NCBI GenBank assembly: GCA_001563915.1
Contig: LKMP01000005.1
Span: 1-59,507, forward strand
Length of the DNA: 59,507 nt
Direction of reading: 5' to 3'
Origin: Nanohaloarchaea archaeon B1-Br10_U2g21
GTDB lineage: Archaea; Nanohalarchaeota; Nanosalinia; Nanosalinales; Nanosalinaceae
The position numbers and the translations under genes are program-made. Below, in pieces: positions 49,162-58,640 of the stretch. Under the pieces are notes generated by a model. The model was not told where the DNA came from. It made no database searches and saw only the letters and a list, made by a program, of their open reading frames with translations. How positions within the stretch are numbered: the first letter of the stretch is position 1; every line of letters begins with the position of its first letter.

Positions 49162-50052
49162 TTAATTAAGGGAAGGAATCATCATCTTCATGCAGAAAAC
49201 AGAGCCTCCAGCTTTCATGAACTCAGAAGTATCTGTTTCAACTACTTTAAATCCGTGGCTTTCCAGGAGTTCTTCTGTCTGCGTGTTTCCTTCTTGTATT
49301 ATTACGGACTCTTTGTCTGGGCAGTGTGCGTTACAGGCAAAACTCTCTGCAGCCTCGTTGATAGGGGCCTCGATTACGGTAGGCCATAGTCTGTGAATTT
49401 TAGCCAAAGATTCTTTACTGAACGCATCAGGAGCTATTAATACGGTTTTAGAGTCTAAAACTGTGAAGCATGTATCTAAATGGTAAAAACGATTATTATC
49501 TATCTTCAAAGTTACTATTTTAGATCTAGTATAGTTATTGAGAGCTTTATAGGCGTCTACGCTAGTTCTTATGCCGTGACCGCCCCATATAAGATCTTTG
49601 GAAGGATGCTTAATGGCATCACCCATGCCCTCAAATATTTTGTTTCTATCTATTCTTCTTATCTTAAACTCTGATTTTTTGTACCAGTCGTTTAATTGTT
49701 CTACTTCATTCTGTCGATGTTTTGAGGCCATATTACTCAGTACTACTTCTCTATGTCCATTATGGAAATAAGGAAAGCTCTGATTGGCCGTGAATACAAG
49801 ATCTGGTAGGCCTTCTACAGGTTCTAGTACATGTACATTATAGCCTAGAGACTCGTAGATTGACTTCAAATTTTCCCATTGTTTGAAAGCCTCTTGATTG
49901 TTAACCTTGTTCGAAGAGTCCATGTAAGGGTTAATCTCATATTTTACATCAAAGTACTCTGGATGAGCCATTAAAACGTCAAAATCTCTTTCCCGGTTTG
50001 TTACATCGGATAAATCAAAGTCAAGAGAGTTTAGTGAAGTGTAGACGGTCAT
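49162..50052 (-). CDS. Guanidino-group modifying (amidinotransferase/DDAH) superfamily hydrolase, arginine dihydrolase (ArgZ N-domain)-like
   Basis: FDVKYEINPYM, PDLVFTAN, FEGMGD, FYHLDTCF, FACNA, SEFMKAGGSVFCM. Confidence 0.8.
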   Translation of the reverse strand: MTVYTSLNSLDFDLSDVTNRERDFDVLMAHPEYFDVKYEINPYMDSSNKVNNQEAFKQWENLKSIYESLGYNVHVLEPVEGLPDLVFTANQSFPYFHNGHREVVLSNMASKHRQNEVEQLNDWYKKSEFKIRRIDRNKIFEGMGDAIKHPSKDLIWGGHGIRTSVDAYKALNNYTRSKIVTLKIDNNRFYHLDTCFTVLDSKTVLIAPDAFSKESLAKIHRLWPTVIEAPINEAAESFACNAHCPDKESVIIQEGNTQTEELLESHGFKVVETDTSEFMKAGGSVFCMKMMIPSLN

Positions 50053-50113
50053 AATTCTAGTTTAGAGATAGAGAAATAAAAAATAGAAAGAAAAAAGTAT
50101 GGAGAAATAGTGA

Positions 50114-51352
50114 TTATTTCTCATCTATATGGTTAGCCATGCGGCTCTGTAGCCCCCATAGTTCGATAAATCCTGGTGAAGCCTCTTGATTGAAGGTTTC
50201 TCCTTCTTTATATGTTGCAAGATTGTGGTCATATAATGCGTTAGGAGATTCTCTTCCTACTACCTTTGCTTCTCCTTTGTAGAGTTTCAGTCTTACTGTT
50301 CCGTCTACTTTCTGGTTAGAATTTTCTTGGAAGCTCTCAATATTATCCATTAATGGATCATTCCAGAGTCCTTGATAGGCCATTTCAGCCCATTTCTGGT
50401 CGAGAGATGGCTTGAAAGAGTTTTGGTGAGTGGTGGATACAAATTTTTCCAAGTCGTGATGCGCGTTTATGATGGTGATTGCAGCAGGGCACTCGTAGAT
50501 TTCTCTTGACTTTAGACCCACTACGCGGTCTTCAGTCATATCAATGATGCCTACTCCGTGTTTTCCAGCTATATCATTTAGCTCGGATATCAGCGAGGTT
50601 AGAGGCTGCTTCTCTCCATTTAACGCTATGGGTACGCCTTTCTCAAACTCCAGAGTTATGTATTCTGGTTCTTCGGGAGCATCTTCAGGTACTTGAACTA
50701 GTTCGAAGATATCATTAGGATACTCTTCTTCAGGATGCTCTAGTATTCCACATTCGATACTTCGTCCCCACAGATTTTCATCCGTAGAATAAGGAGAGTC
50801 TACATCGTTAGGAACAGGGATGCCGTTTTCCTCTGCGTACTCTAGCTCTTTATCTCTTGTCATTTCCATTGCTCGTACGGGGGCGACTACTGTAAGATCG
50901 GGGTCAAGAGACTGCATAGATACTTCGAAACGCACTTGGTCGTTACCTTTACCTGTGCTACCGTGAGCGACTGCATCCGCTCCAGTTTCTTTAGCTACTT
51001 CTACAGCAATTTCTGACTTTAAAGGTCTGGCTATGGCTGTGCTTAAAGGATACTGGCCTTGATACATTGCATTAGCTTTGATTGCTTTCGAAATGTATTT
51101 TTCTGCGAACTCTTCCTTTGCGTCGACTGCTACTGCGTCCACTGCTCCAAGTTCTAAGGCCTTTTCTTTAACCTCATCAAGTCTCGCATCTGGCTGACCG
51201 ATATCGATTGTAAGTGCTACGACTTCCGCATCGTAGTAGTCTTGCATCCATTTTACGAGTATAGATGTGTCTAGTCCTCCGGAGTAGAGAAGCACTATTT
51301 TGTCTATATTGGGTTTTTCATGCGTAGTTTCCGTGTTGTTGAGTAGTTCCAT
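50114..51352 (-). CDS. argG: Argininosuccinate synthase
   Basis: LYSGGLDTS, AHGSTGKGNDQVRFE, YSTDENLWGRSIECG, KSREIYECP. Confidence 0.96.
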   Translation of the reverse strand: MELLNNTETTHEKPNIDKIVLLYSGGLDTSILVKWMQDYYDAEVVALTIDIGQPDARLDEVKEKALELGAVDAVAVDAKEEFAEKYISKAIKANAMYQGQYPLSTAIARPLKSEIAVEVAKETGADAVAHGSTGKGNDQVRFEVSMQSLDPDLTVVAPVRAMEMTRDKELEYAEENGIPVPNDVDSPYSTDENLWGRSIECGILEHPEEEYPNDIFELVQVPEDAPEEPEYITLEFEKGVPIALNGEKQPLTSLISELNDIAGKHGVGIIDMTEDRVVGLKSREIYECPAAITIINAHHDLEKFVSTTHQNSFKPSLDQKWAEMAYQGLWNDPLMDNIESFQENSNQKVDGTVRLKLYKGEAKVVGRESPNALYDHNLATYKEGETFNQEASPGFIELWGLQSRMANHIDEK

Positions 51353-51370
51353 GTTTTAGTTGTACACCTC

Positions 51371-51456
51371 AAAAAAAATACGGGCCATCAGTCCTGTTTT
51401 TTAACAAAAAGTCTTCTGTATAATAGGAAAAAACTAGTTAGAAGGACTGATAACCG
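51371..51456 (-). terminator. Putative attenuator: long hairpin followed by U8 tract, immediately before the argG RBS
   Basis: Minus strand CGGUUAUCAGUCCU (51456-51443) pairs with AGGACUGAUGGCCCG (51395-51381); inner GUUUUUU/AAAAAAC; then UA-U8 and GAGGUG. Confidence 0.6.
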
Positions 51457-51458
51457 AT

Positions 51459-51527
51459 TTATCTGCGCCTAGCCCTATTCAAAGCTAATTTTACAAGTCT
51501 TGTGCTTTGAAGGTCTAGTAATCGCAT
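51459..51527 (-). CDS. Putative arginine leader peptide (uORF) MRLLDLQSTRLVKLALNRARRR
   Basis: 22-codon ORF in the arcA-argG spacer; 6 Arg, 4 of them in the last 5 codons; below the ORF-track size cutoff. Confidence 0.65.
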   Translation of the reverse strand: MRLLDLQSTRLVKLALNRARRR

Positions 51528-51549
51528 ATTGCTAAATCAACCTTGTTTC

Positions 51550-51557
51550 TTTTTAAA
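51550..51557 (-). promoter_or_regulatory. Candidate TATA box (TTTAAAAA) for a leaderless uORF-argG transcript
   Basis: 23-30 nt upstream of the uORF ATG, which is canonical archaeal spacing. Confidence 0.5.
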
Positions 51558-51558
51558 C

Positions 51559-52824
51559 CTACTCCCTGTTTATTGGAGTAGTCATACAGTGAACGCCTCC
51601 ATAACCATTTGTTAGGTTGTCAAGTTCAAGGCCTATGCCATCAGGTACAATCTCGACTCCGAAGTCTCTCATTCCTTCAATAGTTTCATTCAGTTCGGGA
51701 TCATACTCTCCATCCTCTCCTGCTTCATAAATTGGCATGACTTTATGGTCGTCCAGAGTGAGGAAGTTCGCACCGTTAGGAAGTTCATGTGCTGGTATAT
51801 CAACCCATTCATAACCTTGATCTTCTAAATATTCGGTTAATGATACTTCTCTGATAGGGTCATCAGTGTAGCCGCTTTCTTCTCGTTCGTATATATGAAC
51901 TAGCGCATCAGAAGCTAGTTCTTCATTCATTACGGCAAGCCCCTCTCCTGCAATATTAAACCAGGTGTCAAGATGCATGATGTTCATGTCAGCTTCGCCA
52001 TTTGCCAACATTTCTGCCTGTTTTTCTGCTGTTTCTTTAGGAGCGTGGACAAGACCTACTTCGTCATATGAAACGGCTCCGCTATCTAGCACCTCTTTTC
52101 CTGCATCATAAGTTGTTCTTAGTACGTCTCCATTTTCTGCTTCAACGCCTATCAGTGCAAAATTTCCGGCTGGGATGAACTCGCCACCTTCTATTGATTC
52201 GCTAGCTGAGATGGGGTCGTATACATCAGCATCTAGTGCGTTCCAGGCTTGTTTTGTAATCGGTACTTCAGATTGTCTTGTTGGGTACTTCATGTTACAC
52301 ATTATTGGTCCATTATCGCCGACCATTTGTTGATCTCGCTGGAAGAACATGTTTGTGATAGGATTTTCTAGGGTCATTGAGATCTCATCCGCTCTATCGT
52401 CTTTTATGGCGCCTCCATCAGTTTGGTGTTTTGGAGGATGTCTTGTTAGGTTAGGCTTCATAAGGATGGTCTGTAGTTGCTGCCTAGGTGAGAGATCTGC
52501 CCAGTTATCTCTTATTTCATCGTAAACTGGTTGCTGCCTATCTGCTGGAAGGTTATCGACATCTATATCTGAGTGTGAGTCAATTAGTTCTTCCATAGGT
52601 TCGCCTGCGAGGTCGTCGTAAAGTTGTCTTACTTCTACGCCGTTTTCTTCTAGGACGTTTACCATTTTTTGGTGTTCTCTTTGAGCTTTTTCAAGCGAAA
52701 ATGAGTCGAGAAATAAGTTTGCTTCAGGATCCATTGAACCAATAAGTGCTTCAACGCCCGGTGTTAGAACTCTTACTTGTTTTAAAGTGTCGTATTCTGC
52801 TTCAACAGTAGTATTAGAGTTCAT
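51559..52824 (-). CDS. arcA: Arginine deiminase
   Basis: AEYDTLKQV, AQREH, NMFFQRDQ, IEGGEF, MHLDTWFN, GYGGVHCMT. Confidence 0.88.
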   Translation of the reverse strand: MNSNTTVEAEYDTLKQVRVLTPGVEALIGSMDPEANLFLDSFSLEKAQREHQKMVNVLEENGVEVRQLYDDLAGEPMEELIDSHSDIDVDNLPADRQQPVYDEIRDNWADLSPRQQLQTILMKPNLTRHPPKHQTDGGAIKDDRADEISMTLENPITNMFFQRDQQMVGDNGPIMCNMKYPTRQSEVPITKQAWNALDADVYDPISASESIEGGEFIPAGNFALIGVEAENGDVLRTTYDAGKEVLDSGAVSYDEVGLVHAPKETAEKQAEMLANGEADMNIMHLDTWFNIAGEGLAVMNEELASDALVHIYEREESGYTDDPIREVSLTEYLEDQGYEWVDIPAHELPNGANFLTLDDHKVMPIYEAGEDGEYDPELNETIEGMRDFGVEIVPDGIGLELDNLTNGYGGVHCMTTPINRE

Positions 52825-52877: not shown

Positions 52878-54620
52878 CTACATTTTATCTACGGTATTAA
52901 TACCTAAGACGCCTAGGCCGTTATTAAGCACTTCATGAGTTGCATCAGTTAAGGCTAACCTCTCCTTTTCTGTTTCAGAACCTAGTACTCTGTTTTCATG
53001 ATAAAAACTGTTGAAATCTTGTGATAAATCAAACAGATAATGTGCTACAGGCGCAGGATCATAACTCTCTTCTGCCCTCTCTAGAGCAAGAGGGTAGACT
53101 GCAAGAGATCTTGCAAGCTGAGTATCATTCTCGTCCAAGACAGGGTGGTCGGGCATTGATGCTAAGTCATCTGCATCTTCAAGTATAGACTCTGCTCTTC
53201 TAGCAGCGTATTGAATGTAAGGCCCGGAATTCTCGTTGAAAGAAGTCGCTTGATCCATATCAAATGTGATATTCTTGTCTCTACTAACTTTCACGTTCTC
53301 ATATTTGACAGCTCCTAATGCAATTTCTTCAGCAATCTCTGCTGCGACATCATTCTCAAGTTCAGGGTTATTCTCATTTACGATATCCAGAGCTTTTTCA
53401 TAAGTTTCATCTAATACTTCTCGAGCTGTGATTATTTGACCTCTTCTAGTCGACATACTTCCTTCGGGCAGGCTTATCATACCATAACTAATGTGTTCAA
53501 GCGAGTCGGAGTCATAGCCCATGAGACCTGCCGCCTCAAAGAGGTCCTGAAAGTATTCGTCTTGCTCACTCGCCACCACATAAAGCGCCTCATCTTGTCC
53601 GAATTCCTCCTCTCTGAAATCAATTGCTGCTAAATCTCTGGTAGGGTATAGAGTTGTGCCTTCAGAAGTAAGTATTACAAATTCATTACTGTCTTCTCCA
53701 TGATTAGGCTCCAAATCAATTATGACTGACCCATTATCTCCTTTTCTAGCTACTCCGTCTTCTAAAGCCTCTTCTACGATTTCATCAGTCCATCCATTCA
53801 TTACGTAAAATGATTCTCCAATCCATTCGTCAAACTCTACTCCAAGCCGATTATATGTTTCCTCAAATCTTTCTATACTCACATCTCTGAACTTTTCCCA
53901 TAGTTCTGTAGCTCTTTCATCTCCTTCTTCAAGTCTGCTGAACCATTCTCTGCCTTTCCCTCTTAATGCCTCAAGTTCCTCTTCGCTTCCTTGGTCTTGG
54001 AGTTCTGCTTCCTTCTGTCCGACTTTTTGGTATAGTTCTAGTAGGTGTTCTATTGGTTGTTCTTCTAGTTTGTTTTTGTTGCCCCATTGGTCGAATGCGT
54101 ACATGAGGTTTCCGAATTGTCCGCCCCAATCACCTAAATGATTGTCTTTAATAACTTCGTTTCCTCTGTGTTCGAGTACGTTTGAAAGCGCATCGCCCAT
54201 AACAGTGTTTCTAAGATGTCCGATATGCAGAGGTTTGGCGATGTTTGGTGAAGAGACGTCTTCAACAATTAAACGGTCTGAGTCTCCGGATCCATATTCT
54301 TCACGACTTTCTTGAATATGGTCTACTGTGTGTTTGGCAAAATGAGGTTCATCTAGGTGGAAATTTACGTAAGGTCCGTCAGCAGAAACGCTGTCTAGAA
54401 GAGGGTGATTGAATTCTTGTGCTGATAGCTCTTCCGATATTTCGTTCGGAGCTCTCTCGGCTATTTGCGCTGCTTGAAATGCCAGGGGCGTAGATAGATC
54501 TCCGCGTTCTTCACTAGGGTGAGTGTTGACATCTAAAGAGTGGTCTATATCATTTAAGTCTATCTCGGAAAGAGCCACATCAAGTTGTTCTTCTAGATCG
54601 GAACGGACTTCTTGGAACAT
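52878..54620 (-). CDS. argS: Arginine--tRNA ligase, copy 2
   Basis: SSPNIAKPLHIGHLRN, NHLGDWGGQFG, SMSTRRG, NSGPYIQY, FNSFYHENRVL; start set at ATG 54620 (MFQEVRSD). Confidence 0.94.
   Translation of the reverse strand: MFQEVRSDLEEQLDVALSEIDLNDIDHSLDVNTHPSEERGDLSTPLAFQAAQIAERAPNEISEELSAQEFNHPLLDSVSADGPYVNFHLDEPHFAKHTVDHIQESREEYGSGDSDRLIVEDVSSPNIAKPLHIGHLRNTVMGDALSNVLEHRGNEVIKDNHLGDWGGQFGNLMYAFDQWGNKNKLEEQPIEHLLELYQKVGQKEAELQDQGSEEELEALRGKGREWFSRLEEGDERATELWEKFRDVSIERFEETYNRLGVEFDEWIGESFYVMNGWTDEIVEEALEDGVARKGDNGSVIIDLEPNHGEDSNEFVILTSEGTTLYPTRDLAAIDFREEEFGQDEALYVVASEQDEYFQDLFEAAGLMGYDSDSLEHISYGMISLPEGSMSTRRGQIITAREVLDETYEKALDIVNENNPELENDVAAEIAEEIALGAVKYENVKVSRDKNITFDMDQATSFNENSGPYIQYAARRAESILEDADDLASMPDHPVLDENDTQLARSLAVYPLALERAEESYDPAPVAHYLFDLSQDFNSFYHENRVLGSETEKERLALTDATHEVLNNGLGVLGINTVDKM
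54025..54146. repeat. 122-bp identical tract, copy 2
   Basis: Identical to 46332-46453. Confidence 0.9.
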
Positions 54621-54753
54621 AATATGTCTTATATATTCTCTAAAATATTTATAACTTCTCAATGATTGCGCATGGGCGCTCAAGCTCTGAAAATATCTTC
54701 CAAAATCTTGGAACGCTTAAGGATATATAAATTAACGAGAACTAACACCAGCT

Positions 54754-57941: not shown

Positions 57942-58640
57942 ATGGTATATGAAGCCATTGCAGCATCGGGCAGTAGCCCTTACATTTGGGCATATATAAT
58001 AACTGCCTTTTTGAGCGGTTTGGCCTTCCTATACCTCAGCAGAATATGGGATAACGTGCCTAGAAGATTCCCGATAGTCCACTTCTTTATTGTGACTTGG
58101 TCGGGGCTTATGTACCTTAACTTCGTTGAGGGACAGACTTTGATAAGCGATTATGCGTGGTACGTTGACTGGATGATATCTACTCCGTTGATTGTGCTAG
58201 CATTAGCTATGACAGCTACGTACAAGTCGGAGAAGAATCACTATGATCTGATAGCCGCTTTGATGGGGCTACAGTTCATGCTTATCGTCACAGGAATTAT
58301 CTCTCAGGAAGCTGCAGCCTCAACAGCTTACGCGTTTTGGATTGGCTGTGGTTTACTGGCTGGAGTAGCGTACCTTCTATGGGTGCCGTTCCGAAAAATT
58401 GCTGAGGAGACATCAGACGTACTCGCTAAGAAGTACAAGCTACTAGCAGGATACATCACAGTATTCTTTGCGCTGTATCCGGCAGCGTGGTACTTAAGCG
58501 AAGTAGTCTATCCTGAAGGCCCGGCAATGCTAGGCGCCTTTGAGACATCTCTGGCTTTCGTAATCCTGCCGTTCTTCTGTAAGCAGGTCTACGGATTCCT
58601 AGATATGTATCTGATCCAGAAAGCTGGAGAGGAAATCTAG
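57942..58640 (+). CDS. Xenorhodopsin (light-driven inward proton pump), Nanosalina-type
   Basis: 7 TM; HFFIVTWSGLMY, helix C WYVDWMISTP, helix G LPFFCKQVYGFLD (Pro in place of the second counterion, retinal Lys, cytoplasmic Asp). Confidence 0.93.
   Translation: MVYEAIAASGSSPYIWAYIITAFLSGLAFLYLSRIWDNVPRRFPIVHFFIVTWSGLMYLNFVEGQTLISDYAWYVDWMISTPLIVLALAMTATYKSEKNHYDLIAALMGLQFMLIVTGIISQEAAASTAYAFWIGCGLLAGVAYLLWVPFRKIAEETSDVLAKKYKLLAGYITVFFALYPAAWYLSEVVYPEGPAMLGAFETSLAFVILPFFCKQVYGFLDMYLIQKAGEEI

Follow-up and report, generated by a model that had tools for sequence, protein, structure and literature searches.

We analysed the region in front of argG, the gene for argininosuccinate synthase, in a 59,507-nt stretch of DNA from Nanohaloarchaea archaeon B1-Br10_U2g21 (contig LKMP01000005.1), which we call the window. 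On its minus strand this region carries a start signal, a short open reading frame (ORF) that ends in a cluster of Arg codons, and a hairpin with a U-tract before the first gene, which are, as putative elements, three of the parts expected of an amino-acid attenuator. From the sequence, we propose that the region is a ribosome-mediated leader that senses Arg-tRNA on behalf of argG and of the DDAH-like and argH-like genes behind it. We put the probability of this reading at about 0.45.

The region before argG

The window is contig C20 of an 816-kb genome in 24 contigs (G000), 92% complete and belonging to the phylum Nanohaloarchaeota, which we refer to below as the source genome. Its GC content is 39.4%, its proteome is acidic (Glu 11.5%, Asp 7.2%), and Arg accounts for 4.5% of its codons. 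The 206-nt region of interest lies between a gene of the arginine deiminase (ADI) family and argG. It contains the following features, given with argG itself and all on the minus strand.

51550..51557, minus strand: TATA1 (TTTAAAAA); its hexamer TTTAAA begins 30 nt before the leader ATG, and 22 nt separate the box from the ATG
51459..51527, minus strand: leader ORF (uORF1), 22 codons and a stop, encoding MRLLDLQSTRLVKLALNRARRR; ATG at 51527, stop at 51461-51459
51462..51476, minus strand: Arg-codon cluster AGG GCT AGG CGC AGA, codons 18-22 of the leader ORF
51443..51455, minus strand: 5' arm of hairpin B, 13 nt, beginning 3 nt (AUC) past the leader stop
51428..51433, minus strand: T6 tract in the loop of hairpin B, paired in the fold with the A-run of TATA2
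51406..51410, minus strand: T5 tract in the loop of hairpin B
51397..51404, minus strand: TATA2 (TTAAAAAA), a candidate promoter for argG alone, inside the loop and 52 nt before the argG ATG
51383..51395, minus strand: 3' arm of hairpin B
51356..51388, minus strand: candidate mini-ORF of 10 codons (MARIFFEVYN, then stop), in the frame of argG and with its stop 3 nt before the argG AUG
51371..51378, minus strand: U8 tract, 4 nt (CGUA) past the stem and directly before the Shine-Dalgarno sequence
51365..51370, minus strand: Shine-Dalgarno (SD) sequence GAGGTG, 12 nt before the argG ATG, with GGTG starting at -16
50114..51352, minus strand: argG, argininosuccinate synthase, 412 aa, ATG at 51352 (Pfam PF00764 and PF20979)

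The leader peptide ends in N-R-A-R-R-R-stop. Arg is encoded by 6 of its 22 codons, and 4 of these are among the last 5. A peptide this basic, in a proteome this acidic, fits a codon sensor better than a folded protein. Codon use in the source genome is 24 per 1000 for AGA, 6.3 for AGG and 2.6 for CGC, and the tRNA-Arg genes that we detected there have the anticodons UCU, GCG and UCG.

Hairpin B has a 13-bp stem, including 2 G-U pairs, and a 47-nt loop that holds inner helices. The T6, T5 and T8 tracts come approximately 107, 134 and 180 nt after the stop codon of the ADI gene. Both U8 and the SD fall within the mini-ORF, whose first two codons, the AUG included, are exactly the bases that pair with the first six bases of the 5' arm. 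Across the source genome, GGTG peaks at -12/-11 from start codons, with a range of -16 to -8. When we reread the sequence, all of the elements that an earlier note on this DNA had listed were present on the minus strand. The stem it described is also there with its G-U pairs, although it has 13 bp rather than about 14 and begins 3 nt, not 2, after the leader stop.

How unusual the layout is

For background frequencies we used 795 crude gene calls on the source genome, and we counted as short ORFs those that start with ATG and have 8-60 codons. At least four Arg among the last five codons is found in 11 of 13,203 short ORFs genome-wide, and among the 1,372 intergenic ones the leader ORF is the only case. 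TATA-like hexamers peak at -31 to -28 from start codons (107 of 785 genes), so leaderless mRNAs appear to be common in this genome, and the leader ATG stands at the modal leaderless distance, 30 nt from the start of TTTAAA. A TATA-like hexamer at -32 to -27 was found for 32 of 1,362 intergenic short ORFs, the leader ORF included. Several of the other 31 resemble real small proteins.

The sequence after the leader ORF is also uncommon. Only 1 of 792 genes has a T8 or longer within 120 nt downstream, the whole genome has 24 runs of at least eight T or A, and a run of at least five T before the SD occurs in 2 of 78 SD-led genes. The 95-nt region of hairpin B has a z-score of -3.46, with 1 of 200 shuffles equally good. 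Its arm sequence is unique in the genome, and we therefore dropped the idea of a repeated element or a miniature inverted-repeat transposable element. The candidate was picked from a very large scan, and we did not use the product of these frequencies as a probability. Even so, the Arg richness, the geometry, the stem and T8, all in front of an arginine-synthesis gene, are unlikely to have come together by chance.

Folding and a possible mechanism

The leader RNA folds as two independent domains. In hairpin A, which covers the whole leader ORF, the sequence around the start is paired with that of the Arg codons (-17.2 kcal/mol, z-score -2.53), and hairpin B alone has a folding energy of -21.7 kcal/mol. 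We then masked the RNA with a standard ribosome footprint and set the A site on successive codons. With the A site on Arg22, four basal pairs of hairpin B are lost and its energy goes from -21.7 to -14.6 kcal/mol.

All of the steps that follow are inferred from sequence. Transcription driven by TATA1 would give a leaderless mRNA, and the AUG at its 5' end would open the 22-codon ORF with its Arg-rich end. The stop codon of this ORF is 3 nt before hairpin B. The stem ends 4 nt ahead of U8, which would place the point of hairpin-dependent release within the U tract. With ample Arg-tRNA, the ribosome would complete the ORF and depart, hairpin B would form, and most polymerases would end in U8 by hairpin-enhanced archaeal termination. 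When Arg-tRNA is scarce, the ribosome would linger on the last Arg codons and cover the basal 4-6 pairs of the stem. The helix that is left would then be too distant from U8 to aid release, and the polymerase would read through into argG. The same melting would free the AUG of the mini-ORF in the 3' arm, and because this ORF ends 3 nt before the argG AUG there could be a translational output as well. We consider Arg sensing by termination at U8 possible but doubtful, and Arg sensing by unmasking of the coupled mini-ORF AUG quite unlikely.

Points against the leader and other explanations

A number of results weigh against an Arg-sensing leader. In the masked folds, hairpin B keeps all of its pairs when the A site is on Arg18, Arg20 or Arg21, and a ribosome at the stop codon removes seven or eight pairs, which is more than one on Arg22 removes. 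We found no mutually exclusive antiterminator pairing in the free or ribosome-masked folds; an alternative pairing of GGGCU with GGCCC, which had been suggested for this leader, never forms in either. The layout could therefore work solely by direct occlusion of the base of the stem and not as a three-helix switch. The SD is unpaired in every fold, so we rejected SD sequestration, and a +1 path from the Arg cluster to argG is closed by a UAG stop (RNA nt 92-94). T6 and T5 inside the loop should already stop some archaeal polymerases, as T5-T6 terminates efficiently in Pyrococcus (PMC2253867, in the part of the paper available to us). TATA2 is as far from the start as is usual among SD-led genes, 18 of 78 of which carry a TATA-like hexamer at -52 to -41, so argG may have a promoter of its own and may not need read-through.

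Conservation also speaks against the leader. A DNA search of the other 69 phylum genomes gave no match to it (best E 0.011 over ~20 nt). The closest ArgG among 5.8 billion proteins (P0061) is 81% identical and all others are at most 67% identical, and scans of genome and metagenome contigs for ArgG gave no relative above 68%. P0061 is called with an N-terminal extension, in which the 30 nt before the homologous start are open and encode no Phe-Phe, so there is no T8 within 30 nt before the start of P0061. Finally, rare coincidences are to be expected when a candidate is selected from a scan this large. The attenuator that the earlier note had proposed is thus supported in part: its anatomy is correct, the exceptional Arg-rich ORF, the leaderless distance and the geometry of U8 speak for it, and the lack of an antiterminator speaks against it.

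The most ordinary explanation is an intergenic layout with no Arg sensing. In this case T6, T5 and T8 would terminate the argS-ADI unit, TATA2 would drive a short SD-led argG mRNA that starts in or beside T8, the hairpin would be optional, and the Arg-rich ORF and TATA1 would be coincidences. The region downstream of the ADI gene does have the tracts of at least five U that mark an archaeal oligo-U terminator, and multiple oligo-T tracts are typical of archaeal terminators (PMC2253867; PMC13675443, as far as the available parts of both papers go). Hairpins can enhance archaeal termination where the terminator is bacterial-like, though they are not required (PMC13675443, again from the available part). 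The position of the TATA2 hexamer at -52, within the range enriched for SD-led genes, fits this layout, and so do the absence of an antiterminator, the lack of conservation of the leader and the absence of T8 before the start of the closest ArgG. Nine-base inverted repeats no more than 120 nt apart are also common (46 loose pairs in the window). However, several independent rarities would have to come together (Arg richness at 1 in 1,372, TATA geometry at 32 in 1,362, a stem that abuts the stop, and T8), hairpin terminators are not favoured in the genome (4 found against 3.6 expected; 6 kb), and the first tract of at least five T is some 107 nt beyond the ADI stop. A T8 between TATA2 and its start site would also be an odd initiator context. 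We regard this layout as possible, though we would not expect it to be the answer.

It is improbable that TATA1, the leader ORF, hairpin B and U8 make up a separate small gene, for a 22-aa basic peptide or a ~155-nt small RNA, with argG transcribed from TATA2. Such a gene would agree with the leaderless geometry and with the several likely small proteins among the other 31 TATA-positioned short ORFs, and the hairpin and U8 would end its transcript cleanly. Haloferax has 16 small ORFs in long 5' untranslated regions (for 7 of them, a second start site precedes the main gene), but the small proteins reported there are acidic (PMC4983044, in the part available), and a strongly basic peptide would be atypical for a salt-in halophile. 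The small gene also has no DNA-level homologue in the 69 other phylum genomes and would leave the Arg richness beside argG unexplained. Rfam 15 gave 0 matches at gathering score in the window, and the best weak match (19.6 bits against a threshold of 63, E 0.5) was to a C/D-box snoRNA-like family, which we rejected because the box motifs are absent. Even less probable is that the 13-bp inverted repeat is a DNA operator around TATA2 for a repressor of the argG promoter, such as the product of the small winged-helix ORF at 46956-47264. The arms bracket TATA2, this winged helix-turn-helix-like ORF (Pfam hits weak and below cut-off) is in the same cluster, and relatives have a palindrome, TGTTCAGAACA, in their argG promoters beside a divergent ACT-domain gene. 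Against it, the arms are 47 nt apart, the G-T "pairs" have meaning solely in RNA, the genome has no second copy of the arm sequence, and the Arg-rich ORF is again unexplained.

Origin of the window argG

Of the 70 phylum genomes, 16 have argG. The genus has four further species, and we found argG in none of these. In a maximum-likelihood tree of 37 ArgG proteins, which excludes duplicates of included loci (L017-L020, L030) and the truncated L025 and L029, the window protein is sister to all 15 other nanohaloarchaeal copies (93/89). Those 15 group together at 100/99, and the whole nanohaloarchaeal group is sister to halophilic Bipolaricaulota (100/99). The family of the source genome is nested among the genomes that carry the 15 other copies, and since its ArgG falls outside of them, we conclude that the window argG is a separate lineage, probably a transferred one. 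We found no RNA run that covers the locus, and two DNA runs that are possibly the source yielded identical contigs only and no variants.

An Arg cassette on argG and argS of relatives

At all 15 of the other nanohaloarchaeal argG loci (L002-L016), an SD and ATG open a short ORF and the body of argG is in the +1 frame. The junction over the argG start reads GGT GRA YRC GAA AGR in 13 of the loci and GAT TRC GTT CGA in the other 2 (e.g. L004:1434-1478). Its Arg codon is invariant in meaning (AGA in 11, AGG in 2, CGA in 2), and AGA and AGG are rare in the argG bodies of these relatives, at 0-2 per gene versus 5-10 CGN. Among the overlapping codons, AAA (Lys) and ACG (Thr) do not vary either, although AAG and ACC dominate in the same genes. 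An Arg-codon device at the orthologous position in relatives raises the prior for the window leader as a sensor.

We had considered the motif GGTGRNYRCGAAAGR to be specific to argG and rejected this, as it is also found before argS and other ORFs. Elsewhere (L055-L059 among other loci) the Arg motif has 26 matches against 8 for a reversed control, and a T variant of it is weakly enriched (13 against 6 for its control). In one genome (G006, locus L063) it stands before argS, and there the end of the +1 ORF overlaps the start of argS as ATGA. Where Arg motifs occur in tandem, the +1 frame of the first enters the second in the 0 frame in 4 of 4 cases, which we call a staircase. Four matches (L060-L062, L064) fall within long ORFs or at their ends and seem to be coincidental.

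Two other features of the relatives' loci should be mentioned. A divergent gene with DUF7523 and an ACT domain adjoins argG-argH (L004:771-1328, minus strand, and equivalents in most relatives), and the perfect palindrome TGTTCAGAACA is located between TATA and SD in several cassette-bearing promoters. These may be an amino-acid-responsive regulator and its operator.

Specifier-codon cassettes across the phylum

The source genome has three leaderless short ORFs in which M-x-GGT GGA TGT TTT is followed by one further codon that fits the downstream gene. They are at the following positions.

C13:25228-25278, plus strand: cassette
C16:3230-3271, minus strand: cassette
C13:33072-33146, minus strand: cassette

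One of the three has TCC before serS (TIGR00414, 401 bits) and another has AAG before a class II lysS (NF001756, 644 bits). The remaining one has ATC and then, after a second motif GGT GGA TGC GTT, CTG, and it is followed by a small ORF and an aminotransferase gene. Cognate-codon short ORFs of this leaderless kind, in the same genome and in the phylum, raise the prior that the Arg-rich leader in the window is a real sensor.

Across the phylum, GGTGGATGYTTT has 82 matches in 41 of 70 genomes compared with 12 for the control. Our survey was of the TGT form, with 57 loci (within L065-L124) that correspond to the 59 TGT-type matches outside the source genome less one at a contig end. The survey table has 62 motif rows; a further 19 of the 82 matches are of the TGC type. 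A recognisable aminoacyl-tRNA synthetase gene follows in 35 rows, and in 35 out of 35 the codon after TTT matches the amino acid of that synthetase (Thr 12, Gly 9, Tyr 4, Ser 3, Val 3, Lys 2, Phe 1, Trp 1). We assigned the synthetase classes by N-terminal patterns; one representative of seven classes scored above the NCBIfam cut-offs, and serS and lysS of the source genome were confirmed. The +1-frame ORF that begins at the motif stops between -17 and +10 nt from the synthetase start in 33 of the 35 rows, the exceptions being -43 and +634. In two cases with Trp, the gene and the +1 ORF are one and the same, TrpD-like in one and HisC-like in the other, both below NCBIfam cut-offs. For the other 27 of the 62 rows we assigned no class to the gene downstream, and some are probably chance matches (L079, L105, L109, L110, L112 and L124 may be).

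The best reading of the cassette, we think, is a +1 shift on a hungry specifier codon. We prefer this because the cognate codon is used in the 0 frame, the +1 ORF is kept, and the sign of the regulation would be right. The alternative is that translation restarts at the GUG inside the motif instead of shifting frame. Gene callers begin the ArgG of the relatives at this GUG, and the N-termini of other DPANN ArgG proteins align with that start.

The window leader is not a member of this cassette family. Neither GGTGGATGTTTT-X nor GGTGGAYRCGAAAGR was found in the leader or anywhere on the contig, and no +1-frame ORF runs from the Arg cluster to the argG start. The two can still be joined in one proposal, which we consider less likely than not. 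In it, a phylum-wide, mostly leaderless, RF2-like +1 cassette would let the ribosome sense the supply of aminoacyl-tRNA, with a +1 frame that ends on the start of the matching synthetase gene (Thr, Gly, Ser, Tyr, Val, Lys, Phe, Trp, Arg) or that codes for the enzyme itself (argG, TrpD-like). The window argG would be a foreign copy that carries another device built on this logic, namely an Arg-codon leader attenuator.

Our literature searches returned nothing in print on such a specifier-codon system. A 2016 review, in the part of it available to us, knows of no starvation-driven "hungry codon" frameshift that yields a useful product (PMC5009743). If the joint proposal is true, archaea would have in the cassette a translational equivalent of the bacterial T-box, and it would be the first regulatory frameshift at a hungry codon to be found in nature. 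The specifier match in 35 of 35 rows, together with the Arg version on argG and argS, suggests that these tiny symbionts generally use the ribosome to sense amino acids, and this context may matter more than the window leader itself.

A leader ORF before argG of Bipolaricaulota

In the order of Bipolaricaulota that carries this argG, we found it in 14 of 19 genomes. We examined the loci L026 and L039-L051; L038 has too short an upstream sequence for the comparison. Twelve loci (from 11 of those genomes and the metagenome contig L026) have an ATG-started leader ORF of ~33 codons with an invariant core, GFLISAISPLRRG, in which the Ser-Pro-Leu codons have synonymous third-position changes. The core is kept in L050, where we found no ATG start, and L041 has a divergent form. 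The start codon of argG is ATT at most of the loci and ATG or TTG at others, at one position after GAGGTGAT, so we rejected a frameshift here.

At most of these loci AGG AGA GGG (RRG) forms a hairpin arm that is closed by the last codons of the ORF and followed by U-rich sequence. We infer that the region reads as a bacterial Arg leader attenuator, and it has no match to an Rfam family. An Arg-containing leader ORF in the sister bacterial clade also raises the prior for the window leader as a sensor. Both have Arg codons beside or in a hairpin, U-rich sequence after it, and a T-tract directly before GAGGTG (T4-T6 in Bipolaricaulota). The Bipolaricaulota leader differs in its conserved core, in the position of its ORF 120-173 nt before the argG SD, and in its peptide. 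The window peptide matches one of the Bipolaricaulota sequences at 6 of 10 positions, but a profile test led us to reject homology: against the profile of the 12 leaders it scores -1.2 bits, ranks approximately 6,050 of 13,203, and lacks the core GFLISAISPLRRG.

Comparison with known systems

Leader-peptide attenuation is a textbook bacterial mechanism, and it controls transcription of the trp, his, leu, thr, pheA and ilv operons. We know of no Arg example among these bacterial systems, and a literature search for an Arg leader attenuator at argG gave nothing relevant. The parts for leader-peptide attenuation exist in archaea, where transcription is coupled to translation and ends at U-tracts. 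To our knowledge there is no demonstrated case in archaea; our full-text literature searches found none, and the word "attenuat" is absent from a 2026 review of termination. Like the bacterial attenuators, the window has a short leader ORF with cognate codons clustered near its end and a hairpin and U-tract before the first biosynthetic gene, and we propose that here too the position of the ribosome would decide whether the terminator forms. It is unlike them in having an archaeal host, an apparently leaderless start with a TATA box and no strong SD. In place of the 1:2, 2:3 and 3:4 alternative pairings there is just the occlusion of basal stem pairs. The 47-nt loop with T6, T5 and a second TATA box is another difference, and archaeal termination needs no hairpin.

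In fungi, the arginine attenuator peptide, encoded by an upstream ORF of CPA1 and arg-2, senses free arginine through a conserved nascent peptide that stalls the ribosome at the stop codon. The window shares with it an upstream ORF before an arginine-synthesis gene and, as proposed, control by ribosome stalling, and differs in its clustered Arg codons. The T-box of bacterial aminoacyl-tRNA synthetase genes is a structured RNA on which an uncharged tRNA reads a specifier codon. The cassettes resemble it in that one specifier codon in the leader agrees with the amino acid of the synthetase or biosynthetic gene that follows. They differ in having the specifier in a short ORF, where the ribosome would be the reader.

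The programmed +1 site of RF2 (prfB; PMC10798248, for the part of the RF2 work available) has the same layout as the cassettes, in which an SD-like GGUGGA is followed by a 3-nt spacer, UUU or GAA as the P-site codon and a slow A-site codon, with +1 as the productive frame. In the cassettes the A-site codon is a sense codon that matches the regulated gene rather than a stop, and the frameshift is a putative one. The argG leader in the window has no RF2-like motif.

In architecture, the closest published analogue appears to be the leaderless polycysteine short ORF of mycobacteria (the "Cys ribulon"), where a stalled ribosome blocks a duplex that sequesters a downstream ribosome-binding site (Canestrari et al., bioRxiv 10.1101/834739, as far as the accessible part describes it). 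Both have a leaderless first cistron and a run of cognate codons, and in both a stalled ribosome would be the sensor, as we propose for the window. From the same partial account, a duplex that masks the ribosome-binding site is a feature that the window lacks, since the argG SD is unpaired and only the AUG of the mini-ORF is masked.

If the Arg-sensing reading of the window leader is true, a mechanism known from bacteria would have a new variant in archaea, and the leader would be the first Arg-codon leader attenuator in an archaeon. The leader is a defined 175 nt with clear mutational predictions, which makes the question testable in a haloarchaeal reporter.

Gene neighbourhood

On the minus strand, the gene order is argS, the ADI-family gene, the 206-nt region, argG, the DDAH/amidinotransferase-like gene and the argH-like lyase gene. 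The features around argG are as follows.

52878-54683, minus strand: argS, upstream copy
51559..52824, minus strand: arginine-deiminase-family protein, 421 aa (Pfam PF02274 ADI, E 1e-27), with its stop codon 1 nt before TATA1
49162-50052, minus strand: DDAH/amidinotransferase-like gene, after argG
47811-49133, minus strand: argH-like lyase gene, after the DDAH-like gene
47326-47814, plus strand: pyruvoyl arginine decarboxylase gene
45188-47014, minus strand: second argS
44150-45112, plus strand: TFB homologue with an N-terminal membrane-like extension
57942-58640, plus strand: bacteriorhodopsin-family gene

The set of genes at 47326-52824 (ADI-family, argG, DDAH-like amidinotransferase, argH and pyruvoyl arginine decarboxylase) is unusual for a DPANN genome. 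The ADI-like gene has homologues in only 3 of the 70 phylum genomes, and in one of these (G040) it sits next to argG in divergent orientation.

The arginine cluster has an argS paralogue on either side. The two had been taken as support for Arg-tRNA control of argG, but neither has any such leader and they add nothing to the case. Their proteins are 50% identical and have an identical stretch of ~40 residues, and the genes share a 373-nt DNA segment at 80% identity. This may be a product of gene conversion or a recombination scar of an inserted cluster.

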